64,000 nucleotides of DNA from an uncultured virus (IMG/VR IMGVR_UViG_3300031087_000513) (IMGVR_UViG_3300031087_000513), one strand, 5' to 3'; positions 6,146-59,271 are shown, counted from the stretch's first letter. Notes: generated by a model from the letters alone, not told the origin. Made by a program: numbers and translations.

Positions 6146-6172
6146 AGGATTTTCCTAATGCTCATCAACCGC

Positions 6173-8065: not shown

Positions 8066-8071
8066 CGCTCA

Positions 8072-8431: not shown

Positions 8432-8437
8432 AGCCCT

Positions 8438-9297: not shown

Positions 9298-9305
9298 TGA
9301 CCAAT

Positions 9306-9348
9306 ATGAGTAAGGCCCCAACCTGATACAGGTTGGGGCCTTACTCAT
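9306..9348. terminator. bidirectional terminator
   Basis: ATGAGTAAGGCCCCAACCTG/CAGGTTGGGGCCTTACTCAT between convergent genes. Confidence 0.85.
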
Positions 9349-9362
9349 TGCCTTAGGACGTA

Positions 9363-22299: not shown

Positions 22300-23105
22300 G
22301 ACTCAATCTCTTTCTTTTCTAAGCTCTCCGTCAAGAACATTGTCTGAGACTTCACGGTTCCCAGCATCTGCTTCTGCGCGTTTTCTGAAATCTCTTTCGT
22401 CTTATTCAGGACAAGGTTCAGCTGAGCAACGAAGTTCTTCACAAACTCTTCCTTCATCCCATCCGAGCCATTCTGAATTTTTGCAGCAGCTTCCAGAATC
22501 TGAGGGATATACTCAGTAGTAGTCTGCGTGAGGAAATGCTCTTCCTCAGTTGAGACTTTGAAGGAGGAAGCGTACCCATTCATGTCTAAAATCTGTTTGA
22601 TAACATTATCAACAGCCTCAAACCCTGTCTTTGTATTCTTTGAGAGCAATGCAGGGGTAGGGGTAGAAGACAAGCGCAGGTCTGAGAGAATGTCTACTTT
22701 TTTAACACTCTGCCGAGTGTTGTAAGCATTAATCTTTTCAGCGGTTTTCCACATCTTATAGACTGAGTGAAACACCGCTCGTGCGTTAGAATCACTGTAA
22801 CCAGAGTGGTCACCCGTCTTGTCAATTCGTGTGAGAATTGTTCCAGACATCAATTGCAATGCAGGGGAAAGGTCTCGGAAAAGCCGTTTCCAAATAAGCT
22901 TCTGTAAATGAATCGAAGCAGGCCGATTACGGAATGATTTAATGGAACGAGAAACCTTCTCCAGCAACTCTGTGCGCTGCCGTTCATATCCAAATAGTCC
23001 AGTATGGAAAATCTTTTGGGACTTATCGTTGAAATGAGTCAACAACGCCTGGTAGTCAGCATCAGATAGCTCTCTAAACCAAGCAAATGTCCCTTTATCG
23101 CTCAT
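22296..23105 (-). CDS. paralog family C
   Basis: EEEHFL-Q---EYIP-I...NF--QL-LV...VKSQTMFL. Confidence 0.8.
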   Translation of the reverse strand: MSDKGTFAWFRELSDADYQALLTHFNDKSQKIFHTGLFGYERQRTELLEKVSRSIKSFRNRPASIHLQKLIWKRLFRDLSPALQLMSGTILTRIDKTGDHSGYSDSNARAVFHSVYKMWKTAEKINAYNTRQSVKKVDILSDLRLSSTPTPALLSKNTKTGFEAVDNVIKQILDMNGYASSFKVSTEEEHFLTQTTTEYIPQILEAAAKIQNGSDGMKEEFVKNFVAQLNLVLNKTKEISENAQKQMLGTVKSQTMFLTESLEKKEIES

Positions 23106-23881
23106 GATGCGATCTGTTTCCTCTCCATACTTTCAACCAGGAATGCAGTCTGGTTGCGCACATCAGCAAGAGTGCGTTGTTCAGCATCTGCAATCATATC
23201 AGACATTCTCTTCTCAATCAAGCCCAACTGTTGAACAAAGTTGTCAATAGCTTCCTCACGCACACGACTTGGACTGTTCTTAATTCTATCCGCTGCTGTG
23301 AAAATAGCGGGAAGAAGATTGTCTTTCACATTCTCGAAGAAATACTGCTCCTCAGCTGAGAATTCCAGCTTCTGAGCATGTTTTTGCAGTATCTCGATAC
23401 GACTCAGGATTGGGTCAACCTGAGGGAACAAGGATTTCATATCAACAGTGGAAGGGGTAGTAGCAAGCTTCAAGGAATCTAGCACGTAAGAACCCCCTGC
23501 TTTTACCTCTTTTCCCTGCGCCTTGTTGAACTTCTTGGAAAAAGCTTTTCCAGAGTAATATAAACGTATGATTATCCAACTGTTTGTTAGCCAATTAGCT
23601 TGGTAAGTTCTTGCAATGAAGTCTATTTTAGGAATAATGTTTTTGAACAGGGCTGTATAGACCATCCGAGTATAAAACTTCTGGTCCCATTCAATATCTC
23701 CTAGTTCATCTAAAAAATAGTCGAAGTTATGCTGTGCGGCTTCAACTGCATCCTCATCAGTGAAGTGCTCCAAGGTGCAGACCTCCTTCACTTTAAGTCG
23801 TATATGGGCGAGTAGAGCCTCATAATCTTTCTGAGAGAGTGCTTTGAACCACTCGTATGAGCCTTGTTTGAGTTCACTCAT
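23102..23881 (-). CDS. paralog family C
   Basis: EEQYFFENV---LLP-I...NF--QL-LI...VRNQTAFL. Confidence 0.8.
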   Translation of the reverse strand: MSELKQGSYEWFKALSQKDYEALLAHIRLKVKEVCTLEHFTDEDAVEAAQHNFDYFLDELGDIEWDQKFYTRMVYTALFKNIIPKIDFIARTYQANWLTNSWIIIRLYYSGKAFSKKFNKAQGKEVKAGGSYVLDSLKLATTPSTVDMKSLFPQVDPILSRIEILQKHAQKLEFSAEEQYFFENVKDNLLPAIFTAADRIKNSPSRVREEAIDNFVQQLGLIEKRMSDMIADAEQRTLADVRNQTAFLVESMERKQIAS

Positions 23882-24654
23882 GCTGTCAGTTCTTTCTTAT
23901 TTGAGGCTTCAAGGAAAAGGGTTTGTGCTCGGACCTCAGCAAGAATCTTTTTCTCTGCATCGCGGATGATAGTTTCCAAACGCTTTTGAATTAGATTCAG
24001 CTGTTCAGTGAAGTTTTTCTTTGCTTCCGCTTGTGCATCTTCAGAAGCTGTCTGAATGCGTACTGATGCAAGCGCGATAGTCGGAAGGTAGTCTTCCTTC
24101 ACCTGCTCCACAAAGTATGCATCCTCAGCAGTCAGCTGTAATTGGCTGGCTGTGGTGCGCAATACCATGATTTCCTCAAAGGGTTTCAGCAATCCAGAGG
24201 GAAGTTTCTGTAATGGCGCAACAGTCTCTACAAAGTTACTCTGCAGCTCTTTCAGGATGGTACCTTCTGTACGTTCCTGCTTGGCAACTCGTTCAATTTG
24301 TCTCATTTTCCACGTTTTCAGTATTGGAAACACTTTTCTGAGATTATAGCTATATTTTGGAGGAACTTCGTCGGTTCCATATGATTGAAGGGCTTGCAAA
24401 CAAGGCAGAATACTCTTGAAAGTTATTCGCCACACCCTATACTTTTGGTAAACGCTAGCATCAGGGTAATTGGATACAGTATTCATATGAGATTGCAAAG
24501 AACGAGAGTAATCTGTGGGTAACCAACTAGCGGAGCGGCCAAGATTTGAAACTTTCAAAATTTCTCCACCCTGTTTACCCACAGAAGCAAAGAACGCGGT
24601 CCACTCCTCATCAGTCAACTGTAAACACCATTGTAGTGACCCAAACTTGCTCAT
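23878..24654 (-). CDS. paralog family C
   Basis: EDAYFVEQV--DYLP-I...NF--QL-LI...VRAQTLFL. Confidence 0.8.
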   Translation of the reverse strand: MSKFGSLQWCLQLTDEEWTAFFASVGKQGGEILKVSNLGRSASWLPTDYSRSLQSHMNTVSNYPDASVYQKYRVWRITFKSILPCLQALQSYGTDEVPPKYSYNLRKVFPILKTWKMRQIERVAKQERTEGTILKELQSNFVETVAPLQKLPSGLLKPFEEIMVLRTTASQLQLTAEDAYFVEQVKEDYLPTIALASVRIQTASEDAQAEAKKNFTEQLNLIQKRLETIIRDAEKKILAEVRAQTLFLEASNKKELTA

Positions 24655-25484
24655 AATGTTCCCTCATTCCCTAACCGCTCTTCCAAGAATTGGGACTGAG
24701 CGTTCATTGCTTTCATCTTCTGTTCCAGTGCAGCTTCTTGAACTGCCTCTAACCGTCCAGAGAGGAGGCTCAATTGGTTCAAGAATGCTTCCTTAGCCTG
24801 CTGACGGAGCCTCTCAGGGCCTTTCAGGAAGGATAGGTAAAGTTCCACGGAGTTCGGGAGATAGTCCGTTACAACGCGTTCTAGCAGATATTCGTCTTCA
24901 ACACTGTGAACCTCAGACTGCAATGACTCCCAGAGTGTGCGCATATTCTGCATCCGCTCATCAAAGTCAGCAGGCAAATCTGAGTAGGTTGGGAACGCAA
25001 GGGAAGCTAAATGCTGTTCAACAGTTCCATCAGTTGACTCGGTGTACCGTGAAAGCTTTTGAGCATCTGTTTTTGTGCGCAGTTGAGACACTTCACCTAA
25101 GACTTTACGAACACGTTCAGAAACTTCTAAGTAGTTGCCTTCATGGTTTGCTGACGTGCTTGCTCGTTCAGCTTTCATCTGACCCAAGCGTTGGATCATC
25201 TCAGGAGCATCCTGGTTAATAATGCGATACAACAACCCTGCTTCATCATCTGTAACAAGCTGGCGGTCAACCAGCATCCATTCTTTGCGGATCACATCAA
25301 TCTGGTCTAAGAGAACCTTCTGCTGTTCAGGGTAATACAGTACATTCCCTGAGAGAATCTCCTGTAACCGCAGCATGATTTCACTCCACTGTGTAATCAA
25401 GTTCCGCGTAGAGGCAGCACGAACCCAGCCAGCATTCACTGATGGAACACTGGCTGGGTTCTCTGTTTTACCAAACCATGCCAT
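24651..25484 (-). CDS. paralog family C, most XpaC-like member
   Basis: ERVVTDYLPNSVELYL...LNQLSLL...AQSQFLEERL. Confidence 0.8.
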   Translation of the reverse strand: MAWFGKTENPASVPSVNAGWVRAASTRNLITQWSEIMLRLQEILSGNVLYYPEQQKVLLDQIDVIRKEWMLVDRQLVTDDEAGLLYRIINQDAPEMIQRLGQMKAERASTSANHEGNYLEVSERVRKVLGEVSQLRTKTDAQKLSRYTESTDGTVEQHLASLAFPTYSDLPADFDERMQNMRTLWESLQSEVHSVEDEYLLERVVTDYLPNSVELYLSFLKGPERLRQQAKEAFLNQLSLLSGRLEAVQEAALEQKMKAMNAQSQFLEERLGNEGTL

Positions 25485-38295: not shown

Positions 38296-39612
38296 GTGCA
38301 AACCATTGCCTTAAAATACGCCCTGAGCCCTACTATAAGTCAGATGGATTCGCTTTCCTCTCATATCGGGGCTGCTCGTTATGCTTATAACTGGTCCGTA
38401 GCAACCGTGGCAGCAAATTGGGAAGCAGTTCAACAGGAACCGACTATTCCTTACATGAACCTGTCAGCTTACGGTTTACGGAAAGAGCTGAACCGAGTCA
38501 AGGATGAGATTGCTCCCTGGTGGCGAGAGAACAGCAAAGAAGCATTCGCTACTGGAACCGCTAACGCTGCAATGGCTTTCAAGAATTGGTTCAAAAATCG
38601 CAACGGTACCAGGTCTGGCAAAACAGGATTCCCAAAATTTAAAACACGGAACCATGACACGCAGACAGGTATTGTTTTCACTACTGGAACACGTAGGCTT
38701 GAATCCGATAATTGTCATTTCACCCTACCCACCATTGGGTCAGTGCGGTTACACGAGAAAGCGAAAACTCTCCGCTGGTTCTTACATCAGGGCAGTACTA
38801 TTGCTAATGTAACAGTTCGTAAGGATGGAACTCGCTGGATTGCTTCCATTAATGTAAAAGTAGAGGATACTCTTGCTTTGCAGTACTTCGCTGGAAAACA
38901 AGGTAGGAAAACTCGTAAATCAGCTGTTGGTGTTGATGTTGGTCTGAAAGTTTTCCTCGCCACAAGCGATGGAGCATTCATAGAAAATCCAGCTTTCCAG
39001 CGTAAAGCATTAGCGAAGATACGTAAAGCTAATAAGCGGTTAGCGCGGAGACGAAAACTGGATAAGCGCACTGGGGAGACTGCCTCAGTGCGTTGGGACA
39101 AAGCGCATCAACAGCTTGTGAGAACCCATGAGAAGATTCGTAACCAGAGGACTGATTTCCTACACAAGGTAAGCAAACAGTTAGTTGATGATTACCAGCT
39201 CATCGGGATAGAAGACCTGCATATTGCTGGGATGGTACAGAACAGGCACTTATCCAGAAGTATTGCTGACGCGGGTTGGGGTGAGTTTCGTAGGCAGCTC
39301 ACTTATAAGAGTGCTTGGTATGGAAATGAGTTACAAGTAATTCCTCGGTTCTACCCGAGTAGTAAAATGTGTTCAGCTTGTGAGACAGTAAAAGCCACAC
39401 TGTCTCTAAGCGAACGGACATTTAGTTGCGCAACTTGCGGTTTAGTAATGGACCGTGATGTGAACGCTGCTGTGAACATTAGGAATAAAGCTGTCGCCCA
39501 GAGTTGCGGGGAGACATTAAACGAACGTGGAGAGGAAAGCACTGGCTTGGTCAAGTTGACAAGTGAAACTATCCTCGGTGAAACGTTAAGAGACAATAGT
39601 CTCAAGTCATAA
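38296..39612 (+). CDS. tnpB: RNA-guided endonuclease TnpB
   Basis: GVDVG, IEDL, CSAC...CATC, DRDVNAAVNI. Confidence 0.95.
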   Translation: MQTIALKYALSPTISQMDSLSSHIGAARYAYNWSVATVAANWEAVQQEPTIPYMNLSAYGLRKELNRVKDEIAPWWRENSKEAFATGTANAAMAFKNWFKNRNGTRSGKTGFPKFKTRNHDTQTGIVFTTGTRRLESDNCHFTLPTIGSVRLHEKAKTLRWFLHQGSTIANVTVRKDGTRWIASINVKVEDTLALQYFAGKQGRKTRKSAVGVDVGLKVFLATSDGAFIENPAFQRKALAKIRKANKRLARRRKLDKRTGETASVRWDKAHQQLVRTHEKIRNQRTDFLHKVSKQLVDDYQLIGIEDLHIAGMVQNRHLSRSIADAGWGEFRRQLTYKSAWYGNELQVIPRFYPSSKMCSACETVKATLSLSERTFSCATCGLVMDRDVNAAVNIRNKAVAQSCGETLNERGEESTGLVKLTSETILGETLRDNSLKS

Positions 39613-42943: not shown

Positions 42944-43978
42944 TTATAAAACTTTATTAGTTTTTTTCATATTGCATTTTTTGTGGCTTGCCTGTAAGTT
43001 ATCTAAGGCATGTAATCCACCTTTTGATACAGGATAGATATGATCTATTTCTAGGGAGTCCAATTTTGGAGGCTTTATACTCAAATCAATAGGCGTGTGG
43101 CACAGTTGGCATATTCCTTTATCCCTATTATAAATTTCTAATGGGTCTATATCAGGAAGTTCAGAAGTTAATATATAGATGCCTTTAGTCCTCATTCTTG
43201 AGGTATAGCTATTTTTAAACCGGCTGATTCTTTTTCTTTTTTCAGAATATACACGTTGGGCTTTAGTCCAATAAGTATGTTCAGTCCCCACTGGAGTGAA
43301 AACAAGCGCCTCTGCATCGGCAGGCAAGTCATTTTCATCCTTATTGCGTATAAACTCGAAACCCCATTGCAGATTAGTTTCTTCTGAAAATTTCTTTATT
43401 GGAACAGTGTATCCATCAAAAAAGACAAAGTCTACCCCTAATAGAAGCCTTTCTAATAAGAATGTTTGAGGGTTAATAAATCCGTATTGATAACAGCCAG
43501 AATCAGGATTAAGAATGATTATAGGTATATTCTCCTCAATCAGTCCCTCTAAAACCTTAGAAATATAAGGGTCTTTGGGGGGAGGAAGAACAAAAGCTGG
43601 CACATACATACTGATAATGCCATGTCTCTCGTAAATATCACCAGGAATTGGATAGGGTGGAAATTCGTATAAATCTTCAGCTTCTGGAGTTGTTCGGAAT
43701 ATACCTGGTTCACGGTGTTGCAAATTTTTATTTAACCTAATTATGGAAGCTACATAATCTTCGTAGGAAGGAATCGATCCTTTTTTAATTTCTTCTTTTT
43801 TCAGAGCTTTTAGTTTTCGCCAGCAGTTATCCCGTCCGCACAAACCTCGTTTTATCATGTTAATATGTGTGCCATAAAGAATGGGATTTGCACATATTCG
43901 ACAAGGCGTTCCAAGTTCTACTGGGCTTGGGGATACAAGTACTGACTCCCACCAGTCCCACCAATCAGGTATATTCAT
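42944..43978 (-). CDS. HNH endonuclease
   Basis: RDKGICQLC...IDHIYPVSKGG-H---NLQ--H--CN--K; N-terminal Cys cluster; AT-rich; start uncertain. Confidence 0.88.
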   Translation of the reverse strand: MNIPDWWDWWESVLVSPSPVELGTPCRICANPILYGTHINMIKRGLCGRDNCWRKLKALKKEEIKKGSIPSYEDYVASIIRLNKNLQHREPGIFRTTPEAEDLYEFPPYPIPGDIYERHGIISMYVPAFVLPPPKDPYISKVLEGLIEENIPIIILNPDSGCYQYGFINPQTFLLERLLLGVDFVFFDGYTVPIKKFSEETNLQWGFEFIRNKDENDLPADAEALVFTPVGTEHTYWTKAQRVYSEKRKRISRFKNSYTSRMRTKGIYILTSELPDIDPLEIYNRDKGICQLCHTPIDLSIKPPKLDSLEIDHIYPVSKGGLHALDNLQASHKKCNMKKTNKVL

Positions 43979-44230
43979 ATCCAGGTTATCGGAAGAGCAG
44001 ATATATTGGAATAAAGGAATTTTCATGTCAAAAATAATTAGCATCAAAACACCAATAATACAAACAGGCGATGAAGCATTATACTCAGATTTTGCTTCTC
44101 TTTCCTTACGAAGTCGTAAACTTACTATCCTGTATGAGGATGGTTTCACTTTGGTAACGACGGTTATTTCTGAGTCGGAACAAATAATTATTGATACACT
44201 TGTAAAAAGCTAACCAAGAAGGATTTTCTA

Positions 44231-49752: not shown

Positions 49753-50252
49753 TGAATGAGATGGTTGAGAATTTTCATCAGCTTCCTGTCACCGTCCAAG
49801 AAGCATTGATTACTGCGTCTGAGCTTTCAGAATCTGATTTTAGGGAGCTGAGCAATTATGTCATCAGGCAGCATGTCAGTTATTGGCTTCCGAAAATTCA
49901 GGACAAGTATCCTATTGCAGGCATTGAGCCAGAAGCATTTTTTGACGGGGTTTCACTTCGGGAAGCTCTGTACATGGTTTTCACCTGTGACCACTTTTGG
50001 GAGTGGGATGAAGACATCAAAACATATGATGCGATTGTCTCAAAACTCAACAGTAAGTATGGTGTTATCGCTTTGTCATCTGATCTTACGGGAAACCGCA
50101 CAGGATATGGACTTGCCGCACATCTGCTCGTACCGTTTGGTCAGGTTTCAGAAACCGCGTATGATGAGAACCGTAACCCAGTAACCATTGTTGATAACGT
50201 TCGTGAACGTATTGACCGTCTGAATAAGGAAAACCGCTATGGAACTCATTGA
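49752..50252 (+). CDS. hypothetical protein
   Basis: TAATG coupling. Confidence 0.75.
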   Translation: MNEMVENFHQLPVTVQEALITASELSESDFRELSNYVIRQHVSYWLPKIQDKYPIAGIEPEAFFDGVSLREALYMVFTCDHFWEWDEDIKTYDAIVSKLNSKYGVIALSSDLTGNRTGYGLAAHLLVPFGQVSETAYDENRNPVTIVDNVRERIDRLNKENRYGTH

Positions 50253-50523
50253 AAAGACCTTCGTCCTGACCATCCCGACCATTCTGACTCGTAGCTCTGC
50301 TCGGCGTTCTGCTGCTCGTATTCCAGCAGATGTTTCCCTTGTCCTGTTTGATTTCAGCTCTAACAGTGTGATGTTTCGTTCAGGTGCTTTGGAGCTTGTT
50401 CGTTTGACGTTGGTTGGACAGTGGCGTACAGCGACAATCAAGGGTTGGGAGCAGCTCGGAGACTTGAACCCCTTGTACGAAGCTCTCCACAAGGAGAACG
50501 TCTTCCACCAGTTCACCCAGTAA
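50239..50523 (+). CDS. hypothetical protein
   Basis: SD AAGGA; followed by terminator. Confidence 0.65.
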   Translation: MELIEKTFVLTIPTILTRSSARRSAARIPADVSLVLFDFSSNSVMFRSGALELVRLTLVGQWRTATIKGWEQLGDLNPLYEALHKENVFHQFTQ

Positions 50524-50525
50524 GA

Positions 50526-50575
50526 CAAATGAGGAAGGCCCGCAACCAGAACAGGTTGCGGGCCTTCCTCATTTG
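50526..50575. terminator. bidirectional terminator
   Basis: CAAATGAGGAAGGCCCGCAACC/GGTTGCGGGCCTTCCTCATTTG. Confidence 0.85.
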
Positions 50576-50576
50576 A

Positions 50577-51239
50577 TTAGTCCAGTTCAGTGCAGTTCAC
50601 CAGTGTAAAGCTCTGAGCATTTGCAAGCAAGCTGATAGAGCCAGGCTGTTCAAAAGCGTTCAGGTAGCGGGTGACACCGTTCGGCTCCCATTGCAGCTCA
50701 CGGAAATAATCCTCGTCCTGGCTGCTGTTATCAGGCCATTCATTTTCATCGTACTCCACAACAGGGTGAATGAGAATTTCAGGCTTCAACTTCAACTCGT
50801 ACAGGTACCAGCGAGCTTTGATGTCATAGTCATTGAATTCTTCGTTCCGCTGCACTGCACGGGCATATGCTGCGTCAGAAGTGCCAAGATGCACCATAAC
50901 ATCGCCTTCACCGTACCCTTCTTTTCGAGGGTCACCGCCGTTGGTGATGTCATCAAACCAGACAGGGTTATCCGTGGCATGGAACCAGCTGCTGTTACGA
51001 ACAGTGTCCTCGTTGAAGAAAGGAGCTGCGTCATGACGGACCCAAATATCAAACTCGGTCAGGTCAGTGTACTCTTGTCCACATTTGCGGCAGTTGAACG
51101 TTCTACCCAGGTTGAACAGGGTGCCAATTTTTTCCGCCAGCTCATCGCTGTACCCTAAACCGCACGAGGCGCATCGAGTAACGGAATCATCTTCGGTACC
51201 GATAACAAAACCTGTGTTCTGCTGAACTATCATGCTCAT
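50577..51239 (-). CDS. zinc-ribbon protein with possible ADP-ribosyltransferase-like domain
   Basis: CASC...CRKC; WFHAT, VHLGT--AA--R, LYELKL, YLN--E-PGS. Confidence 0.6.
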   Translation of the reverse strand: MSMIVQQNTGFVIGTEDDSVTRCASCGLGYSDELAEKIGTLFNLGRTFNCRKCGQEYTDLTEFDIWVRHDAAPFFNEDTVRNSSWFHATDNPVWFDDITNGGDPRKEGYGEGDVMVHLGTSDAAYARAVQRNEEFNDYDIKARWYLYELKLKPEILIHPVVEYDENEWPDNSSQDEDYFRELQWEPNGVTRYLNAFEQPGSISLLANAQSFTLVNCTELD

Positions 51240-51297
51240 AGGTATCAGTCTACACGCTTTCTCCGAATAATGTCAACTTTTCCCGATAGAAGCTTAT

Positions 51298-51738
51298 ATG
51301 AAGAACGTGCCACCACCACTACCCCTGCGCCGAGAACAGGATCGATCCATCATTATGTTTTTGGGGCTGGCGGCATTTTCCGTGCTGACAACTGAATTCA
51401 TGATCCTCTCACAGCTCAACAACCAAGTGTGGATTTGGCTGGTCATGTTTGTTTCTTCCAGCAGCATTGTCATGATTTTGTTCTTGTACTTTACGCTATG
51501 GTATTCAAACAAAATGAAAGTACTACGTTGGACTCACCAACATGGCTACCGTCGCGTTATTATCAACAATGACGTATTAGAGCAGATAAACGAACGTCGT
51601 GGGAGCATCACGTTCTACGACAAAGAAGGCCGCAAGTACTCCATACAAACTTCTTACGACGATTTATATCGTTTGATAAGCATCAAACACGTGAAGCGAG
51701 AAGAATCAGAGATAACAGAGTCGCAACTTCAAAGTTGA
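51298..51738 (+). CDS. two-TM membrane protein
   Basis: Two TM helices then W---HGY. Confidence 0.7.
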   Translation: MKNVPPPLPLRREQDRSIIMFLGLAAFSVLTTEFMILSQLNNQVWIWLVMFVSSSSIVMILFLYFTLWYSNKMKVLRWTHQHGYRRVIINNDVLEQINERRGSITFYDKEGRKYSIQTSYDDLYRLISIKHVKREESEITESQLQS

Positions 51739-52262
51739 TGAGCTTTGAAAGCTTCCATCGCTTGTTCCAGCAGAACAGTGATAGCTTCCAGCTCCCAAGA
51801 GCTGAACGTTAGGGCTGGTACTCCACCTACGAAGACATAATACTTGTCAACAATACGCTGAACGGTGAGCGTAGTTAGGCCATTACGTTTCGTGTCTATG
51901 CATGCTGAGGAAGCAATGAACAAGTTGTGTTGTTCAGCTCCTGTAATAGGTAGAGCAAAACGAGCAGCATCCTCGTAGAAATCCTGTTCTTCATCGTAGA
52001 AGACTGATCCATATGGGAAGACTTGATAGGTGTCTTGTGGACGTTGAGTGTCAATGTCGGCCGCGTGTTGGAGGAGCGCAATGAGATGATCTGTATGCTG
52101 GATTCTGATATCGCCGCAACCCATGCTGATATGAAAGAACCAATCATTCACTGTCAGCTCGTATGTCCATAGTCCAGCGCCTTCCGGCATCCCTGGATGC
52201 TGAATGCTTACTGAAAGTTTCCTGTAAGAAACTTCCTCTACGTTTACTGAAAACTCTGTCAT
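51729..52262 (-). CDS. hypothetical protein
   Basis: Leaderless start after TGCTAAAGT. Confidence 0.7.
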   Translation of the reverse strand: MTEFSVNVEEVSYRKLSVSIQHPGMPEGAGLWTYELTVNDWFFHISMGCGDIRIQHTDHLIALLQHAADIDTQRPQDTYQVFPYGSVFYDEEQDFYEDAARFALPITGAEQHNLFIASSACIDTKRNGLTTLTVQRIVDKYYVFVGGVPALTFSSWELEAITVLLEQAMEAFKAHQL

Positions 52263-52336
52263 ACAGATAACTTTAGCACGGAAAGTCTGTTAGAATAGTT
52301 AAACGCATCAACGTCTTACATATGAGGAGGTCACCA

Positions 52337-52567
52337 ATGGACACTAATTCATTCGTGAAAAATCTGATCGACCGTATCAACCAGGAAGACTACCCTGTTC
52401 TACTCCTGGAAACTCGCAGGAATCAGGACTCTCGGAAAGTGCAGCTCAAATCCCACTACAACAGTACGTTCTACGGGGTTTTCGTAGATGAAAACAAGAA
52501 CGAACCGTTCCGTGTAAGCGACAGTACTATTCAGAATAACAGCTTCAAAATTACTGTCGTCAGCTAA
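52337..52567 (+). CDS. small hypothetical protein
   Basis: SD AGGAGG; terminator 52572-52609. Confidence 0.7.
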   Translation: MDTNSFVKNLIDRINQEDYPVLLLETRRNQDSRKVQLKSHYNSTFYGVFVDENKNEPFRVSDSTIQNNSFKITVVS

Positions 52568-52607
52568 AGCGAAGAAAATCTCTCATTTATATGAATGAGA
52601 GATTTTC

Positions 52608-52787
52608 TTGACATAAATACGTTTTCAGCCTATAATTGAACGCATACTTACAAGACAGTAGAAAGATTTTATTCATGTACTTCATTGACCGCGATTACCG
52701 CTCCTTCCATTTTTGAGGAAGGGCATACACAGAAGTTCACAATGAGCTTCACTAGAAGATGCCCTACCTTGAAAGGTAGGAAGAACA
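52608..52787 (+). promoter_or_regulatory. promoter plus uORF-dependent translational attenuator A
   Basis: TTGACA-N17-TATAAT; uORF; mutually exclusive 1:2, 2:3, 3:4 stems, with 3:4 masking the SD. Confidence 0.8.
52675..52716 (+). CDS. leader peptide MYFIDRDYRSFHF
   Basis: ATG after AGAAAGATTTT; positional homolog at 55390. Confidence 0.7.
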   Translation: MYFIDRDYRSFHF

Positions 52788-53507
52788 GTGTCACGTACAC
52801 TCAAAGACCGTCCATACTGGGTTGCCATTAACGACGAACATTACCACGCTCGCTACATCCAGCATAACCACCACAAAGCTGGACTCATCCAGCGTGATTA
52901 TGATTACCCTCGTGATGAGAACGGTCATATCATTTACGAAACCCGCAACGGTTTCAATCACACGCATTACATGCTGACACTCAATGACGGTTCCCAGAAG
53001 CTCATTCCGAAGAAGAACTGGGAAGTTTACTACGGTGTCAGCACTCAGCCTGCGCGCCACAGCACCACTGACTTGCCATACCGTTGCTACCAGTTCATCA
53101 ACAGTAAGAACCGCAAGCGTATTCAGAACGTCATTGAATACAAAGCCTACGGTGAAAACTATGAGTATCTTGCGCTTCCGAGCAAGAAGTACATTGAAGT
53201 TGGAACCTACTCTGAAGAGTGCACTGAGGATGTGAAGCTCAGCTACAATGACCGTTACGGCCACCGTGCCCCTGGTGTTCTGTGCTATCCGACATTGAAT
53301 TGGCGCAACCACTACAACGAATATTACAAGAACCGCCCTCAGCCTGATGAGAAACGTAATCATCACAAAACTGGACGTTCCGCTGAGCGCGATGATTTGA
53401 CTCGTGCTACCAAACTGTACAATGGTGGCGAGGATGACATGTGGGGTGACGACTTTGAGAAAGCTTACACCTCACGTCAGCGCCGTCACTCTGGCTGGTG
53501 GGACTAA
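52788..53507 (+). CDS. basic Tyr/Arg/His-rich protein, family F
   Basis: MSRTLKDRPYWV...RQRRHSGWWD; paralog of 55482. Confidence 0.85.
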   Translation: MSRTLKDRPYWVAINDEHYHARYIQHNHHKAGLIQRDYDYPRDENGHIIYETRNGFNHTHYMLTLNDGSQKLIPKKNWEVYYGVSTQPARHSTTDLPYRCYQFINSKNRKRIQNVIEYKAYGENYEYLALPSKKYIEVGTYSEECTEDVKLSYNDRYGHRAPGVLCYPTLNWRNHYNEYYKNRPQPDEKRNHHKTGRSAERDDLTRATKLYNGGEDDMWGDDFEKAYTSRQRRHSGWWD

Positions 53508-53587
53508 CATTTAACGGACAAGTGTCTATTTGTTGAGAGAAAACCGATAATTATTAGGTATTCCCCTCAACAAATAGAAAGCCCCCC

Positions 53588-55276
53588 ATGCTTCGCATTC
53601 ATCAAGTGCTAAAATCGTCGCGCGCTGCGATTGATCTTGCCAGTATCATGGTAGGTATCATCGTCATTGGCCTGATTGGTGGCGTTATTGCCGCAACCGT
53701 ATTCGCAGTTATCCCGTGGTCCCAGGATAATGCTGCGAAACAGCAATTAGATTCAGTTGCATCCGCTGAGTCAGCCTACCGTGGACTCAGCGCAGATAAA
53801 GATAGCGGCTTGAAAGATGCATCTAGTAGCCCAACCAACTCGGCAGATGCAAATCAAGTTGTCCTAAACTCCGCTTTTACTGGTAGTAAAGGCTTGTCTA
53901 CAAACAATCTCCTACAAGAATCAGACACCTACTGTGTTATTTCTTCAACAGATGGCGCTGATTACACAGCGTATGTCAAATCAGGTTCAGGGGCCATCTA
54001 CACCAGGAATTCAAAATCTCCTACCTATCAGGTTCAGGACACCCGTTCAACCTGCCTGGGAGATATTACCAACGGAGTTTTGCCTGGAACTGCGGGCAAC
54101 GCAGGCTCAGGGGCGGGTTCTGGCAGCACAGGAGGAGGCGCTACTACACCTGTTGTTGACGCTACAGCGTTTACACCTTCTTCCTTAGTTCAGGGGTCAA
54201 TGAGATACGGTTCGTCCTATGCGATTGCTTCGGATGGAATCTACGGATGGGGAGATAACAACTTCGGTAGAGTTGACCCAAAAAACACTACTAAAGTTGG
54301 AACTTCTCGAGTAATTACCAGCCCCCAGCTTGTACTTGCAGGAGATTTTGTTCAAGTCACAGCTAGCAACACTTATACTGTTGCAGTTACTCGTACAGGA
54401 GACGTTTACGCTTGGGGTGGAATCAGCAGCTATTCAGAAACTCCTATTACAAAACTTTCCAGTTTGTCCAACATTGCTAAAGTTGCATTGGGAGATACGC
54501 ATCTCATTGCTATGACGAAAACTGGTGGAGTATTAGGTTATGGTGTCAACGATGTAGGGCAAGTTGGTAATCGTTCAACAACAACTGTTCCAGCATCAAC
54601 TCCTGCCACCATTTTGACCAATGGAGGTACAAACCCTGTCATTGATATTGCAGCTACACAAAAAGCCTCTGCTGTATTGCGGGCTGATGGAGAAGTTGAT
54701 ACCTGGGGCAATAACATCAGTGGTGAATTAGGCAACGGCACTTTTGGAGGCAATATACCTTACCCAACCCAGAATAAGATGCCAGTCAAAACTGGTATCA
54801 GTATCCAAGCAGCTAACAGCACTTTTGCCGTTCTCACTTCTGACGGTAAAGCTTTCGTATGGGGAGATAACAGTACTGGAATCTACGCTGATGGCACAAC
54901 AACTTCACCAGCAACTGGCGCTGCAACAGTACCTCGCCAGATTGCTTCCTTGGCAGATAAAAACATCAAGAAATTAGTCATTGGTGTATATGCTTCTTAT
55001 GCTATTGATTCTAATAATACAACATATAGCTGGGGATTCAACCGAGGTAAGATAGGAAACGGTACAAGTACCGCTCAGTACACTCCTGTTGAGCTTGCAA
55101 TTCCTGGAGAAACCATCAAAGATGCTACCTCGGGGTTCACTACAACCTTCTTGCTGACTAACAGTGGAAAGCTTTATGGAGTGGGAAGCAACTCAAAATA
55201 TGAATTGGGGCAAGGTCCTACTGACAGTGTAGCCAAAAGTTCTCCTACCATTATCAAGCTCATTCCTACACCTTAG
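53588..55276 (+). CDS. pilin-like N-terminus fused to RCC1/BLIP-II repeats
   Basis: SSRAAIDLASIMVG hydrophobic helix...PWSQD-AAKQQL; repeats of G-VY-WG-N--G-LG-G. Confidence 0.85.
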   Translation: MLRIHQVLKSSRAAIDLASIMVGIIVIGLIGGVIAATVFAVIPWSQDNAAKQQLDSVASAESAYRGLSADKDSGLKDASSSPTNSADANQVVLNSAFTGSKGLSTNNLLQESDTYCVISSTDGADYTAYVKSGSGAIYTRNSKSPTYQVQDTRSTCLGDITNGVLPGTAGNAGSGAGSGSTGGGATTPVVDATAFTPSSLVQGSMRYGSSYAIASDGIYGWGDNNFGRVDPKNTTKVGTSRVITSPQLVLAGDFVQVTASNTYTVAVTRTGDVYAWGGISSYSETPITKLSSLSNIAKVALGDTHLIAMTKTGGVLGYGVNDVGQVGNRSTTTVPASTPATILTNGGTNPVIDIAATQKASAVLRADGEVDTWGNNISGELGNGTFGGNIPYPTQNKMPVKTGISIQAANSTFAVLTSDGKAFVWGDNSTGIYADGTTTSPATGAATVPRQIASLADKNIKKLVIGVYASYAIDSNNTTYSWGFNRGKIGNGTSTAQYTPVELAIPGETIKDATSGFTTTFLLTNSGKLYGVGSNSKYELGQGPTDSVAKSSPTIIKLIPTP

Positions 55277-55321
55277 TAATATTTAATTGCAAGAAGCTCC
55301 GAACTTATTTTTCGGAGCCTC

Positions 55322-55481
55322 TTGCAATTAAGCCGATTTTCCTGTATGATGTAAACAGACTTATAAACGACCAGAAAGATTTTTGCGACATGAACTTCAT
55401 TCGTTACCTACATAAGTAGGTAGACGCGTCAGCTCACAAGGAGTTGACAGAGAGCTGCCTACTGGAAAGTAGGATAATAAC
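55322..55481 (+). promoter_or_regulatory. promoter plus uORF-dependent translational attenuator B
   Basis: TTGCAA-N17-TATGAT; uORF; same four-segment pairing as attenuator A. Confidence 0.8.
55390..55419 (+). CDS. leader peptide MNFIRYLHK
   Basis: ATG after AGAAAGATTTT; hairpin spans its stop codon. Confidence 0.7.
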   Translation: MNFIRYLHK

Positions 55482-56111
55482 ATGTCCCGTACCGACAAGG
55501 ACAAGCCGTACTGGGTTCGTGCGAACGACGCTCGCGGAACCATCCAGTCCGACATCTGGCACCGCCACGACAAAGCTGGGCGCGAGCTGCGCATCACTGC
55601 ACGCGCTAAGGACGAGAACGGTCGCCCGTTGACCCGTGACGTGGTGACCGAAAAGCGAGTGTGGGCTATCAAGTTGCGAGGAGAAGGAACTCTCTACTAC
55701 GAGAAGCTCTCCGATTCCGACAACATCTTGGTCAACCGCCAGTACGACATCACATACTTCGGCCAGGTCACCCGCGAATTCGTTCGCAAGCAGCCTGTCT
55801 ACGAAACCATCAGCGTGGGCTTCTACCCAACCGAATGCGACGCTCACCTCCCGCAGAAGCACGGAGGTGGATACAACCGTCGTGACCTGTACCTCTGCTG
55901 CCCTGGGTTGCAGTACTGGGCTAACGGATACAGCTACAACCGTCCGCGCAAGTTCGAACGCCAGAACTACCAGGCTTCCGCACGTCGCCAGGAGCGCGAT
56001 GTTCTCAGGGACGCTGTGAACGTGTACAACAGCGGCGACAGCGACCTCTGGGAAGACGAGTGGGAAGCTGCGAACACCCGCCAGCACCGCCACAACGGAT
56101 ACTGGGACTGA
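55482..56111 (+). CDS. basic Tyr/Arg-rich protein, family F
   Basis: MSRTDKDKPYWV...RQHRHNGYWD. Confidence 0.85.
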   Translation: MSRTDKDKPYWVRANDARGTIQSDIWHRHDKAGRELRITARAKDENGRPLTRDVVTEKRVWAIKLRGEGTLYYEKLSDSDNILVNRQYDITYFGQVTREFVRKQPVYETISVGFYPTECDAHLPQKHGGGYNRRDLYLCCPGLQYWANGYSYNRPRKFERQNYQASARRQERDVLRDAVNVYNSGDSDLWEDEWEAANTRQHRHNGYWD

Positions 56112-56171
56112 ACAGGGAAAAGACGAAAACTAACCGATAAACGTTTCCAAACCTGGACAAAGGCTGGAAAC

Positions 56172-56921
56172 ATGGTTAGAAAACCTATCATATTTGGATT
56201 AGTTCTTCTCACATTAGGAGGACTCCTATCAGGATGCTCCTCCACAGGTGGTGGAATAAAAGGCGAGCAAAGTCCCTCTTCTATGAGTAGACAAGTAACA
56301 ATTGATAAATTCACAAAAGCCATCGCAGATAAAGATTCCAGCAAAGCTCAGAGCATGCTAAGCGATGATTCATATGTGGGTAAACCAGTAGATATTGTCA
56401 TTTTTCCAAAGACACCACCAAAAATTCTCGATATTGAGAATGGCAAAGTCAAAGTCCGAGTAATTTCCGTTTCTATTGAACGTAGATATCTTGATGCTGT
56501 ATATGCTTTGGGTGATGTGAATCTTCAACCAGATACAAAATACGGAGTTGTTGAGGGGATTTATGACGGGACTGTCTCCAGCCCCCATGAAGCATTTACT
56601 GCTCAGCTTGCAAGCGGTAAGTCTATTTCAAATGACATGGGAGGAGATGAGGCAAGTATTTCTATAAATGACATTTTCTTCAATGGTGGCACTAGCAATC
56701 CTGAAATTACAGGGAAAACTGTTAATAAAATTATTGCTCTCTATAAAGCAAAAGGCTTTGACGTAACTGCAAATCAAGTTATGTCGCAAGTTACTATTCA
56801 AGTAGATGATAGCGTTCAAATTAGTCTTTCAGACGACGGTATTTCAACTCCGAACGGGGAAGTTGTTCCCAAAACAGCAACCTACAACTCTGCTACAGAT
56901 GAGTGGTCCGACCTCCGTTAG
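56172..56921 (+). CDS. lipoprotein
   Basis: Lipobox LLSGC; AT-rich. Confidence 0.8.
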   Translation: MVRKPIIFGLVLLTLGGLLSGCSSTGGGIKGEQSPSSMSRQVTIDKFTKAIADKDSSKAQSMLSDDSYVGKPVDIVIFPKTPPKILDIENGKVKVRVISVSIERRYLDAVYALGDVNLQPDTKYGVVEGIYDGTVSSPHEAFTAQLASGKSISNDMGGDEASISINDIFFNGGTSNPEITGKTVNKIIALYKAKGFDVTANQVMSQVTIQVDDSVQISLSDDGISTPNGEVVPKTATYNSATDEWSDLR

Positions 56922-56930
56922 AGATGACTC

Positions 56931-57674
56931 ATGAAGTCACCGCAAACATTAGCTAACCCTCGAGGCAAGTGTACGAAGAAGAACCCTCGCCTATGCCGTT
57001 TGCATGGCAAAAAATACATTGAGCTCACTAACTTCCGCAAACAAGTTGCTGACCGTGAAAAAGAACTGGAGTTCCAGCGGTTCACTACACCCGACTTTGC
57101 TGCGTCTTGGAAAGTCAAAGAAGAAAAAGACGGGACAACAACAGCATCTGTCTACCGGTCAGGTGTTCCTTCAGCTCCGAAAGAGCGTAAAATAGAAGCA
57201 GGTCATTACTCCCGAGCAGATGCTCTCCGCCCAGAAGGTCGTCAAGGCCGGACTGATGGAGTATTTGCTTCACCTACATTGGGTGGAGTATGTCGCTGGG
57301 TCAAAGGAAATTACTACACAAACGTTCCTGACGTGCGAGTGCGAGAATTACGCGTAGATGTAGACAACACATATGTTTACTCAGTCAACTCTTGGGAGCG
57401 CGCTTCTAGCTGGGACACAGAAGAAGAGTACAAGAAGTTTTGGGACACTGGTATCACCCTTCGTGAGTACATGAAGCGAGCAAAAACTGACCCGCGTACA
57501 TACGACCCGCAGAATTGGGAGTTGCTCATCAAAGAGGGAAACATTCGTTCTGCGAAACCTGTCGGAGCTGAACGAGCTGCATCCTTTGAATACTCCTCTG
57601 GTGACCATTCTGAGGTTACGAAGATACTCAAAGAACCTCTTCCTACCTCTGAGCAATTATCTCGTCGTCGTTGA
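56931..57674 (+). CDS. possible R-S-E ADP-ribosyltransferase-fold protein
   Basis: VYRSG, GVFASPT, ELRVD, WELLI in ART-like order; N-terminal C-x7-C-x2-HG. Confidence 0.55.
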   Translation: MKSPQTLANPRGKCTKKNPRLCRLHGKKYIELTNFRKQVADREKELEFQRFTTPDFAASWKVKEEKDGTTTASVYRSGVPSAPKERKIEAGHYSRADALRPEGRQGRTDGVFASPTLGGVCRWVKGNYYTNVPDVRVRELRVDVDNTYVYSVNSWERASSWDTEEEYKKFWDTGITLREYMKRAKTDPRTYDPQNWELLIKEGNIRSAKPVGAERAASFEYSSGDHSEVTKILKEPLPTSEQLSRRR

Positions 57675-57711
57675 TTCAGAGTTGCCGATAACGCTGGTAG
57701 GAGGAACATTA

Positions 57712-57945
57712 ATGATTCTGGTCACGGAGCAAGGCAAAGAAGCGCAACGCAAGTATGACGATTATGTGCAGTTAATTAGTCGTGAGATGCTACTATACAT
57801 GGAAGTAGGTGTGGAATATACTCCAACGGATTTCCTAGAGTGGTTTCATGAAGAAAATGATCGATTAGTTCGTGAAGCAATGTGGCTGTTACTATCCCGA
57901 AATTTTATTCAAATGACCTCCAACAGGAAAATGCGTCGGATTTGA
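57712..57945 (+). CDS. small winged-helix-like protein
   Basis: VREAMW-LL----IQMT tail; SD AGGAGG. Confidence 0.6.
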   Translation: MILVTEQGKEAQRKYDDYVQLISREMLLYMEVGVEYTPTDFLEWFHEENDRLVREAMWLLLSRNFIQMTSNRKMRRI

Positions 57946-58012
57946 AAGACTCATTTACCAGAAGCTTCCGATACTAGAGTATGTACATATTTTCAACTAT
58001 TGAAGGCTTTTC

Positions 58013-58978
58013 ATGCTTAGGCAGATCAACCAAACTCTCCGCAGCAGTCGCGCAGCTGTTGACTTAGCAACCATTATCGTCGGTGTTGTCGTCATCGGGA
58101 TCATCGGCGCGGTTTCTGCTGCAACTATTTTCGCTCTTGTTCCCTGGATGCAAGACCGTTCAGCAAAGCAACGTCTATCCAGTGTGTCCATTGCAGAGAA
58201 CTCCTATAAAGGAGCTTACGATACGTACGGTTATGACCTCTCTGATATCCTCGACATCAAGACTCTGGCAGTAGACAAAATCCGCATCCAGTCAGACAAC
58301 AAGACCTGTTATGCCGCATTCTCTAAGTCTTCAACTGGAAACTATTTTTACAACACTTCCTCAACAACTGACCCACAAACATTAGGGAAGACCTGGCCAA
58401 CAACTAAGCCTGCGAATTACCCAGCAGGATGTACTTGGCCAAGCAGCTGGGACGCTTCAATTATCCATTCCACGGGAAATCTCAATCTTGCTACTGACCC
58501 AGTGAAGATGACAGGTTGGTCTAACTCAGTCAACTTGCTCACTTCCACCTCAAGTGGCGTACCCTCGGGAAGTCCTCTTTCCGGGGTTATCAAGGTCAAC
58601 GGAACTGACAACCTGCCAGCAGGAGACTTGTCTTCTTATCCTTCAAGCGATACTTCCACTACTTGGAAAGTCAGCGGTTGGGTAGCTACTGACATAGATT
58701 CAGCTGACTTTACTTTTGGAGCATGGTATGGAACATATTCTTCACCTCCAGCAGGAGGATATGTCCGTGCACCCTTTACTATCAAAAAAACAGATGGCTG
58801 GACCTATTTTGAAACCAATGTTGGCATTAATACTATAAAAGATAATCCGAAAAACACTGCATGGTATGATTCAACTCAGTTGAACAAAAGCTGGAACTGG
58901 AGACCTTTCCTTGGGACAAACTCAGCAGGTCAAGGACATCTGTACGTAACAGGATTCCAAGTTTCCAAAGTAGGCTAA
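58013..58978 (+). CDS. pilin-like N-terminus with beta-rich C-terminal domain
   Basis: SSRAAVDLATIIVG...PWMQD--AKQ-L; paralogous N-terminus to 53588. Confidence 0.8.
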   Translation: MLRQINQTLRSSRAAVDLATIIVGVVVIGIIGAVSAATIFALVPWMQDRSAKQRLSSVSIAENSYKGAYDTYGYDLSDILDIKTLAVDKIRIQSDNKTCYAAFSKSSTGNYFYNTSSTTDPQTLGKTWPTTKPANYPAGCTWPSSWDASIIHSTGNLNLATDPVKMTGWSNSVNLLTSTSSGVPSGSPLSGVIKVNGTDNLPAGDLSSYPSSDTSTTWKVSGWVATDIDSADFTFGAWYGTYSSPPAGGYVRAPFTIKKTDGWTYFETNVGINTIKDNPKNTAWYDSTQLNKSWNWRPFLGTNSAGQGHLYVTGFQVSKVG

Positions 58979-58992
58979 TAAGGAATAGCAGT

Positions 58993-59271
58993 ATGAACGC
59001 ATGGGCTAAGTTTCGCAGATGGCGTGAACGGGAGAACTTCCGTCGTAACTATCTGTGGTTTCATAACCAAGCCGTCAAATACCAACATCTGATGCATAGA
59101 TATGATGCAACCATGACATGTGGCGATGACCCAATCACTCGCCTTATAGTAGCTGAACGAGAGGTTGAAAAGATTCGCATGGAGCAGCGATTCCATGACG
59201 TTCACTACTACAAAGGTCAGGATGTACTTGACCCTGACGTTCACTACCTGGTTGTCAACCGCCTATTCTGA
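58993..59271 (+). CDS. hypothetical protein
   Basis: SD AAGGA. Confidence 0.65.
   Translation: MNAWAKFRRWRERENFRRNYLWFHNQAVKYQHLMHRYDATMTCGDDPITRLIVAEREVEKIRMEQRFHDVHYYKGQDVLDPDVHYLVVNRLF

Follow-up and report, generated by a model that had tools for sequence, protein, structure and literature searches.

The window analysed here is a stretch of 64,000 nucleotides (nt) of DNA from an uncultured virus (IMG/VR IMGVR_UViG_3300031087_000513), and the subject is a pair of paralogous genes within it, here called pA and pB, each of which is preceded by a leader that carries a short upstream open reading frame (uORF) and four complementary segments (numbered 1 to 4), the last of them holding the Shine-Dalgarno (SD) region of the gene. 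This leader feature is real and conserved among homologs, as it stands before relatives of the genes in ~35 other phage sequences, and it is very probably functional. With moderate confidence we hold that it acts as a uORF-driven ribosome-dwell switch, that is, as a translational attenuator with ermC-like logic, in which a ribosome that lingers within the uORF would open the main gene. The class of mechanism is known (ermC-type translational attenuation), and the RNA family and the protein family appear to be new.

Both modules lie on the plus strand, and all the elements listed in the initial annotation (promoters, AGAAAGATTTT, uORFs and segments) were found in both leaders. In the first module, the upstream gene is closed by an inverted repeat (52574..52607), a hairpin with TTTTC at its end, which lies directly against the -35 box of promoter 1, TTGACA-17-TATAAT (52608..52636), a sigma-70-type promoter that agrees with the consensus at 12/12 positions. 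The sequence AGAAAGATTTT follows at 52660..52670 and is the likely ribosome-binding site (AGAAAG) of uORF1 (52675..52716), which has 13 codons, encodes MYFIDRDYRSFHF and stops at TGA. By folding, segment 1 (52703..52708) lies within uORF1 and can pair with segment 2 or 4; segment 2, GGAAGGGCAT (52717..52726), stands immediately 3′ of the uORF stop and has segment 1 or 3 as its partner; an apical or 'spacer' hairpin, GAAGTTCA-CAA-TGAGCTTC, occupies 52732..52750; segment 3, ATGCCCTACCT (52759..52769), can pair with segment 2 or 4; and segment 4, AGGTAGGAAG (52774..52783), is the SD region of pA (52788..53507; 239 amino acids, GTG start), the product of which shows the family motifs MSRT.KDRPYWV ... 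HxH ... C ... C ... RQ.RH.GWWD. The second module is built in the same order. The 3′ arm of an inverted repeat (55287..55327) that follows an RCC1-repeat gene overlaps the -35 box of promoter 2, TTGCAA-17-TATGAT (55322..55350; sigma-70-type, 9/12 consensus positions), and then come AGAAAGATTTT at 55373..55383, again the likely ribosome-binding site, and uORF2 (55390..55419; 9 codons, MNFIRYLHK, stop TAG). Folding places segment 1 at 55405..55411, segment 2, GTAGGTAG, which holds the TAG stop of uORF2, at 55416..55423, the apical hairpin GTCAGCTC-ACAAG-GAGTTGAC at 55428..55448, segment 3, CTGCCTACT, at 55455..55463, and segment 4, AGTAGGAT, the SD region of pB, at 55468..55475. The gene pB itself (55482..56111) encodes 209 amino acids and is a paralog of pA by BLASTP. 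The 11-mer AGAAAGATTTT has just two copies in the 64 kb on both strands (52660 and 55373), and the pattern ATG.ACTTCATT occurs in the window just at 52675 and 55390; we take the AGAAAG of the 11-mer to be complementary to the 3′ end of Gram-positive 16S ribosomal RNA.

The segments offer three pairings in each leader. Segments 1 and 2 pair across the uORF stop as CCTTCC (52703) with GGAAGG (52717) in leader 1 and as TACCTAC (55405) with GTAGGTA (55416) in leader 2; segments 3 and 4 pair over the SD region as CCTACCT (52763) with AGGTAGG (52774) and as CCTACT (55458) with AGTAGG (55468), respectively; and the alternative 2:3 pairing joins GGAAGGGCAT (52717) to ATGCCCTACC (52759) with one mismatch in leader 1, and GTAGGTAG (55416) to CTGCCTAC (55455) with one G-U pair in leader 2. 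Moreover, segments 1 and 3 are near-repeats (CCTTCC/CCTACC in leader 1, TACCTAC/CCTACT in leader 2), and so are segments 2 and 4 (GGAAGG/GGTAGG and GTAGGTA/AGTAGGA), and thus segments 1 and 3 are each able to pair with either 2 or 4. Against dinucleotide shuffles, the complete leaders have folding z-scores of -3.9 and -3.6 and their 3′ parts of -4.8 and -4.4, with 0/200 shuffles equally stable, and the 1:2 regions score -3.8 and -3.6. Leader 1, and likewise the short form of leader 2, reaches its minimum free energy in a nested rod made of 1:4, 2:3 and the apical hairpin. When the folds are forced, 1:2 + 3:4 gives -41.6 kcal/mol and the rod 1:4 + 2:3 gives -43.7 kcal/mol for the pA leader, compared with -39.3 and -40.1 kcal/mol for the pB leader. 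The two complete folds are hence predicted to be nearly isoenergetic, with segment 4 paired in each, and on paper segment 4 would be free solely when segment 1 is covered and 2:3 has formed. No plus-strand terminator-like site was found in 52000-57000 and no T-run follows the last (3:4) hairpin of either leader, which places control on the initiation of translation and not on transcription.

For the comparison with homologs, the 200 nt upstream of each homolog start were taken as its leader (51 in total, 46 without identical ones; loci are labelled L001 and so on), and the uORF was sought in 43 non-redundant leaders with at least 190 nt upstream, among which there are a few near-duplicates. 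An ATG uORF of 4-25 codons with its stop 53-82 nt before the main start is present in 32/43 leaders compared with 25% of 4,300 dinucleotide shuffles (binomial p 1.6e-11), and thus the finding that would have spoken against the initial annotation, namely that homologs lack such leaders, was not obtained. Folding was then compared in a detailed set of 32 leaders, the two from the window and those of 30 loci, with the near-duplicates L009, L010 and L031 left out. The 2:3 stem with the apical hairpin (from the uORF stop to -16) has a mean z of -3.48 and lies below -1 in 31/32 leaders; the 3:4 hairpin (last 34 nt and start codon) has a mean z of -1.80 (23/32 below -1), and the 1:2 region across the uORF stop a mean z of -1.41 (16/32 below -1). 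The apical loop is mostly of five nucleotides with the form A-N-N-N-G (ACAGG, ACAAG, AAAGG, ATAGG), and in the 3:4 hairpin the loop mostly reads GGAA or GAAA, in our view the first half of a longer Shine-Dalgarno sequence (GAAAGG).

Misalignment kept RNAalifold from finding a structure when all 32 leaders were aligned with MAFFT, and covariance models of subgroups were therefore used. In subgroup A (model R1, from 11 seeds, with an alignment of 12 leaders), 14/15 pairs show compensatory change and 90.8% of the cells are paired, compared with 31-43% when the partners are slid. The model of subgroup B (R2, from 4 seeds) recovered the window pB leader (E-value 0.11) and those of L006, L034 and L015, together with an unforeseen second copy in L008, L009 and L010, and it aligns seven other distinct leaders to the apical hairpin of leader 2. 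Because its stored alignment contains four minus-strand rows, which come from the near-palindromic hairpins and inflate covariation, the count was repeated on eight distinct plus-strand rows; in this subgroup, which includes the pB leader, 12/15 pairs are compensatory and 94.1% of the cells are paired compared with 22-43% for slid partners. The homologs thus share the architecture although their sequences differ. In 273,935 bases (the window and the loci), R1 and R2 have no match beyond the leaders and the tandem-paralog copies of L008, L009 and L010, which ties the motif to this gene family. The window pA leader is matched by neither R1 nor R2 at E-values up to 10, and would belong to the leader family by its architecture alone. 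The second copy in L008, with a promoter of its own and the uORF MSNRIRYLHK, precedes a tandem paralog (L008 3886-4512); L008 shares synteny with the window to both sides, and so the two-paralog arrangement is conserved and an RCC1-repeat gene is inserted between the paralogs in the window.

The uORFs of the detailed set span 4 to 22 codons, and their peptides are unconserved save in close relatives (MNFIRYLHK; MTYIRYLHK in L006; MSNRIRYLHK in the second copy of L008; ...EQWYLHK in L007); those of the Microbacterium phage group have 21-22 codons and end in C-stop. Two different devices seem to secure their translation. A TANNNT -10 box ends 5-7 nt before the uORF ATG in 12/35 leaders, 11 of them at exactly 6 nt and one at 7 nt, compared with 9% expected (L001, L003, L016, L020, L021, L023, L024, L025, L026, L041, L051, which is phage Cece, and L052, which is phage Big4), often with a good TTGACA-like -35 box, and the uORFs behind such a box are probably translated from leaderless transcripts, a type common in Actinobacteria. 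Most other uORFs, those of the window included, have AAGG, AGGA or GAAAG 5-12 nt upstream. Judged by this pattern, translation of the uORF looks selected for. In Big4 (L052, locus 2310-2444), the annotated gene 168 (44 codons, hypothetical) shares its stop with a 21-codon uORF and is probably an over-extended call of the leader uORF.

To model the effect of a ribosome, positions -12 to +13 relative to the first base of the P site were kept unpaired as a block, and the mean unpaired probability of the main-gene site (-13..+3) was read out in 31 leaders. In free RNA the accessibility of the site is 0.364 in real leaders and 0.454 in shuffled controls; when the P site is placed 4-5 codons upstream of the uORF stop it is 0.577 compared with 0.462, and with the P site at the last sense codon 0.469 compared with 0.471. 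Mid-uORF accessibility is above that of free RNA in 30/31 leaders, and the value at the stop is below the mid-uORF value in 26/31. In the model, then, the real leaders are shut in free RNA, are opened by a ribosome in mid-uORF and shut again in part when it reaches the stop. The structural reading of the initial annotation (a uORF, mutually exclusive pairings, a masked ribosome-binding site and ermC-type logic) is accordingly supported by folding, by the homolog leaders and by these ribosome-position scans.

The switch that we propose would run as follows. The free leader would adopt either fold, 1:2 + 3:4 or the rod 1:4 + 2:3, and in both the main gene would be closed by the pairing of segment 4. 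A ribosome covering segment 1 within the uORF would leave segment 2 to hold segment 3, so that segment 4 becomes free, and a ribosome that reaches the uORF stop, at the foot of the 2:3 stem, would melt 2:3 and allow segment 3 to pair with segment 4 again. Slow or stalled elongation ~3-8 codons before the uORF stop would hence give more initiation at the main gene, smooth translation of the uORF only a brief pulse, and no translation of the uORF no initiation at all. As for the signal, there are no amino-acid runs in the uORFs, and among the 349 residues of 34 uORFs F (3.4x), N (2.1x) and I (1.9x) alone exceed their share in the family proteins, apparently a consequence of A+U-rich composition. 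Because the peptides are unconserved and runs are lacking, elongation trouble of a general kind is the most likely signal, with tRNA (transfer RNA) damage or depletion, translation inhibitors and host shut-off as examples, more so than one amino acid or drug. A sensor of a specific amino acid was dropped on the same grounds, since there are no runs and the composition is merely biased to A+U-rich codons. A queuosine-tRNA or NAY-codon sensor is not claimed either: N, Y, D and H together make up 28.7% of the uORF residues and 6% and 16% of those in the two remaining frames, but Y, D and H are unenriched compared with the family proteins and related leaders share codons.

Several observations weigh against the dwell switch. 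The arrangement is missing in 11/43 leaders (L002, L027, L004, L005, L037, L038, L040, L042, L044, L048 and L049), most of which are shorter and have the ribosome-binding-site hairpin alone, several of them before a short form of the protein (124-141 amino acids). Where several frames were open, the uORF was chosen by the analyst (three candidates in L007, two in L008), and the leaders share ancestry, hence the counts are not independent events. The 1:2 pairing is significant in half of the leaders alone (16/32) and 3:4 is weak in 9/32, while the apical loop is more conserved than the role of a spacer needs; the model needs neither its A-N-N-N-G form nor the bias of the uORF stops towards TAG. 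The folds are all thermodynamic predictions for naked RNA, and the modelled effect is moderate. Moreover, accessibility at the stop (0.47) stays above that of free RNA (0.36), so that ordinary translation of the uORF would open the site too, which fits plain coupling.

Such coupling, or re-initiation, is in our view rather unlikely. It would make the uORF a strong entry site, translation of which melts 1:4 and 2:3 with no sensing of stress; the rod juxtaposes the uORF stop and the main start, a terminating ribosome may be handed over, and the leader would set a fixed yield or tie expression to active translation. Leader 1 and most homologs indeed have the rod as their minimum-free-energy fold, all 20 model-aligned leaders place the uORF stop at the foot of the 2:3 stem, and the accessibility of 0.469 with a ribosome at the stop, above the 0.364 of free RNA, is what coupling would give. 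The short-uORF leaders L011, L012 and L013 pair the uORF start with the main start, and most uORF stops have an SD-like AGG overlapping or just after them (TAGG in 19/27, counted by eye). Re-initiation has been put forward for leader genes (PMC4833913), though at distances of 10-16 nt. The stop-to-start distance of 53-82 nt in the present leaders speaks against it, as do two features that coupling would not need, namely the 3:4 hairpin (mean z -1.80, 23/32) and the near-repeats that segments 1 and 3, and likewise 2 and 4, form. Furthermore, the reclosing of the site at the stop in 26/31 leaders argues for a switch.

Another conceivable function is that of an operator, in which the conserved apical hairpin, and possibly that of the ribosome-binding site, is bound by the protein in autoregulation, or by another factor or a ligand, so that the closed fold is fixed as feedback and the uORF is secondary. 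The apical hairpin is the most constant part of the leader, with a z below -1 together with the 2:3 stem in 31/32 and a loop mostly of five nucleotides, A-N-N-N-G; the RNA stands only before this protein family, as expected from co-evolution of RNA and protein; and the proteins are mildly basic (pI 8.7-8.9), with an invariant H-x-H, C and C that could bind zinc. However, no RNA-binding domain or fold was recognised in the proteins, the loop sequences differ between subgroups, and an operator leaves unexplained the four-segment repeats and a conserved uORF that comes with a promoter spacing or ribosome-binding site of its own. We regard such an operator as distinctly unlikely to be the main function, and it is compatible with the dwell switch, not exclusive of it.

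Less probable still is a sensor of termination, in which the speed of UAG recognition (release factor 1 activity) or amber suppression decides the fold. It is brought up by the uORF stop, which is TAG in 26/34 leaders compared with 40/208 (19%) of open reading frames (ORFs) of at least 80 amino acids in 14 of the same sequences and mostly has a G after it, and by tRNA genes with a CUA anticodon, which lie within 2.4 kb of the family gene in 5/41 loci. Yet window leader 1 ends in TGA, and TAA ends the uORF in six others, including L020, which has a CUA tRNA nearby, while L030, also with a CUA tRNA, has TGA. The window uses the standard code, with TAG terminating 13/97 ORFs; the next in-frame stop after read-through is scattered, and the frame of the uORF relative to the main gene is random (12/12/7). 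The TAG is also explicable at the RNA level, as UAGG starts the SD-like segment 2. Recoding of TAG in the window was considered and dropped, since TAG ends these 13/97 ORFs and coding cover is 0.88 with the standard code and 0.90 with TAG as sense. As for the CUA-anticodon tRNA genes themselves (called 'Pyl' by ARAGORN, amber-suppressor type; L020, L022, L030, L036 and L050), two of the loci come from contigs of 791 kb and 885 kb, and reading TAG as sense hardly alters coding cover in these short loci.

Transcription attenuation or amino-acid-specific leader-peptide control of the trpL, hisL or actinobacterial whiB7 type can be set aside as extremely improbable: a short uORF and alternative hairpins are present, and 12/35 uORFs are of the leaderless type common in Actinobacteria, but the window leaders have no T-run after any hairpin and no plus-strand terminator, the last hairpin holds the SD region, and the uORFs have no residue runs and an F, N and I enrichment that looks compositional.

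The proteins that the proposed dwell switch would regulate form a family that appears to be new and restricted to phages. pA and pB share 30% identity over 251 columns (BLASTP, E-value 3e-19) and have both ends in common, MSRT.KD.PYWV at the N-terminus and RQ.RH.G.WD at the C-terminus. A profile search of 1.84 billion representatives gave 170 proteins at E-values up to 1e-3, 59 of them reaching 1e-10, and a word-indexed protein search gave just two close clusters among 38 candidates. The residues M1, S2, T4, K6, D7, P9, V12, H27, H29, G47, C119, C139 and R168 are invariant in an alignment of 41 members, and in the first 12 codons the synonymous sites vary freely between members, so that the N-terminal motif is conserved as protein and not as RNA. 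There was no Pfam match for pA, pB and 28 further members, no match in PHROGs, and no NCBIfam match for pB and 40 relatives (0/41); the AlphaFold model is confident (mean predicted local distance difference test score, pLDDT, 82.8), and among solved structures the best results were an E-value of 0.45 with PDB profiles, an E-value of 0.12 with Foldseek and a Z of 4.0 over 47 residues in a wide VIA-align search. The nearest protein-atlas clusters are 96-100% viral and hypothetical, and the tblastn relatives are in seven cultured Microbacterium phage records (186-195 kb), as 'hypothetical protein', including Cece gene 163 and Big4 gene 169. A tblastn search of plasmids with pB found none, and a pattern scan of a one-genome-per-species collection gave 13 matches, none confirmed as family. 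The description of the proteins as basic and uncharacterised therefore stands in its second part, with no family or fold match, and has to be softened in its first, as the isoelectric points (pI) of 8.7 and 8.9 make them just mildly basic. A short form of the protein (124-141 amino acids) occurs in L004, L005, L025, L031, L035, L038, L039 and L040; it keeps the N-terminal MSRTDKDRPYWV and the GYWD-type C-terminal end and is without the middle beta-rich part, and some of these loci have a full leader and others a uORF and one hairpin only.

The neighbourhood of the family genes probably ties the role of the proteins to translation or tRNA. The fetched flanks contain tRNA genes in 19/41 loci, with arrays of 8-12 in L001, L023, L043 and L048. 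Among up to five nearest ORFs in 31 loci (130 ORFs), an RtcB RNA ligase is found in 4 loci, Macro in 3, NUDIX in 3, NADAR in 2, the peptidyl-tRNA hydrolase PTH2 in 2 and TROVE (Ro-like) in 1, and in Cece and Big4 the family gene stands between an RtcB-like ligase and genes for tRNA-Met, tRNA-Met and tRNA-Cys. Such a setting would suit a role in coping with damaged translation. The two window copies have no tRNA or RtcB gene nearby. The initial annotation had proposed a ribosome protection or rescue factor; no family or fold match lends this direct support, and what remains of it is the neighbourhood, which points to translation and RNA repair.

It is possible, though we offer it only tentatively, that the leader is a phage alarm for attacks on translation that induces a countermeasure protein. 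A host defence that cuts or depletes tRNAs or slows ribosomes would make ribosomes linger on the uORF, and the switch would open. If so, the protein would work with the neighbouring phage tRNAs, RtcB, peptidyl-tRNA hydrolase and ADP-ribose-removing enzymes, the two copies might be tuned to different codons or attack strengths, and this would be the first virus sensing host translational shut-off by leader-peptide attenuation. Leader-peptide switches are known from bacterial antibiotic-resistance and amino-acid operons, and full-text literature searches, judged by titles and abstracts, found no account of one conserved in phages. An RNA design kept through deep sequence divergence is a new cis-regulatory RNA family for catalogues and strongly suggests that an abundant phage protein annotated as 'hypothetical' has its role when translation is disturbed; cultured Microbacterium phages (Cece, gene 163; Big4, gene 169) possess the complete module and, growing on non-pathogenic hosts, provide a tractable system.

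The window appears to come from a phage-like genome of very large size. In three blocks it matches part of L006, a metagenome contig of 878,612 bp, at 96-99% identity; contigs of 788-885 kb, as well as viral contigs of at most 398 kb, carry remoter relatives of the family gene. These 788-885 kb contigs carry phage-type genes, and if they are phages their genome size is unusually large. Comparison of L006 with window 51892-59087 shows that 53804-55385 of the window, which takes in the RCC1-repeat gene's 3′ part together with the pB promoter, is exchanged for other sequence in L006, and homology returns 5 nt upstream of the uORF2 start. The G+C content of the window is ~47%, it has no tRNA gene, its genetic code is standard (see the 13/97 ORFs ended by TAG above; cover 0.88, and 0.90 with TAG as sense), and small ORFs crowd it. 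Its domains include NADAR, a SprT-like domain, an RNA-repair HAD domain, an M23 peptidase, LytR-CpsA-Psr, a glycosyltransferase, TnpB, HNH, AIM24 and a luciferase-like oxidoreductase, and several ORFs belong to phage-only PHROG families, for example phrog_6944 (E-value 1e-90) and the phrog_18295 paralog cluster. This cluster, at 4996-9746 on the minus strand, has at least five small paralogs (113-148 amino acids) of phrog_18295 and phrog_8206, both of which are of unknown function. Also on the minus strand, at 20663-25484, are six head-to-tail ORFs (258-280 amino acids) with overlapping stop and start codons, which have no Pfam or PHROG match except one below threshold. A TnpB/IS605-type gene (OrfB_IS605 and a Cas12f-like TNB domain) and an HNH endonuclease gene, at 38296-39612 and 42944-44149, are read as mobile elements within the phage-like genome.

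Between pA and pB, the RCC1-repeat gene (53588-55276; Pfam match WD40_RLD, E-value 1e-85) encodes 562 amino acids with a hydrophobic, pilin-like N-terminus. At 53616-53739 the summed contig depth is several-fold above that of the flanks in three DNA runs and many contigs diverge on both sides, so that this part looks like an N-terminal module common to many paralogs. The stretch under study as a whole, and not this part of it alone, was traced in plant-surface and leaf-litter metagenomes (11 runs with at least half of the sampled words, and rows that span 16 studies), and phage records searched with DNA 50001-58000 gave no match. In the metatranscriptome library X20, contigs 90-99% identical to the window cover 52959-53107 and 53184-53337 of pA, and 55388-55578, 55744-55894 and 55958-56106 of the pB leader and gene, although transcription is not shown thereby, and the lack of X20 contigs over most of the RCC1-repeat gene carries no meaning.

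Among known systems, the amino-acid operon attenuators (trpL, hisL, pheL) were rejected as a class for these leaders, which have neither codon runs nor a terminator. Rfam release 15 gave no match to the whole window at gathering thresholds, and in 52500-56200 at E-values up to 5 the sole hit was mir-2767, which at 26 bits is below its gathering threshold of 69 and merely reflects the hairpin at 52574..52607. T4 translational operators (gp43, RegA, gp32) are hairpins at or next to the Shine-Dalgarno sequence of the gene, with no uORF and no alternative pairings; the present leaders resemble them in having a gene-specific hairpin at the Shine-Dalgarno sequence of a phage gene. The bypass of T4 gene 60, as described in PMC10732093, is alike in placing, in a phage, a UAG stop within a hairpin and, between it and the next coding part, ~50-70 nt of structured RNA that bears SD-like elements, whereas the main protein of the present family is conserved from its own Met1. 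A translational bypass or read-through fusion was rejected, as an in-frame matched landing codon is present in 7/31 leaders and in neither of those of the window, and the frames are random.

In whiB7/wblC of Actinobacteria, a leader uORF that is often leaderless reports general translation stress, and Actinobacteria are the likely host phylum for part of the present family, with relatives in Microbacterium phages. Control of whiB7 is by transcription termination and acts on a transcription factor; the phage leaders, in contrast, have no terminator and mask the ribosome-binding site. The chloramphenicol-inducible cat/cmlA leaders have a leader ORF that enters the 5′ arm of a hairpin masking the Shine-Dalgarno sequence, which a stalled ribosome opens, and they are approached by the short-uORF members L011-L013 and L033, in which a uORF of 4-5 codons pairs with the main start region. 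But cat/cmlA leaders have a single hairpin and a defined stall peptide, whereas the phage leaders have three helices with alternative partners and variable peptides.

The closest likeness is to ermC and its leader ermCL. Membership of the erm leader family proper was rejected, as pA and pB have no Pfam match, pB and 40 relatives no NCBIfam match and the leaders no Rfam match; the leaders are without sequence or Rfam relation to ermC, and the regulated gene is no Erm methylase or known resistance gene. The phage leader peptides are unrelated and unconserved, an extra conserved apical hairpin stands between segments 2 and 3, segment 1 also pairs with 4 in the closed rod, the uORF stop is at the foot of 2:3, and the system is phage-borne. 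In ermC, according to PMC5118997, 1:2 + 3:4 hides the Shine-Dalgarno sequence and 2:3 frees it, so that a ribosome on segment 1 turns the gene on, and the same source describes what the phage leaders have in common with it, a short leader ORF with its own ribosome-binding site, four segments and translational control without a terminator. Of the features that define the ermC-type class, induction by a stalled ribosome is seen in the accessibility model, and four others, a leader ORF, a masked site, an alternative 2:3 pairing and no terminator, are found in the window leaders, the masking and the pairing by prediction.

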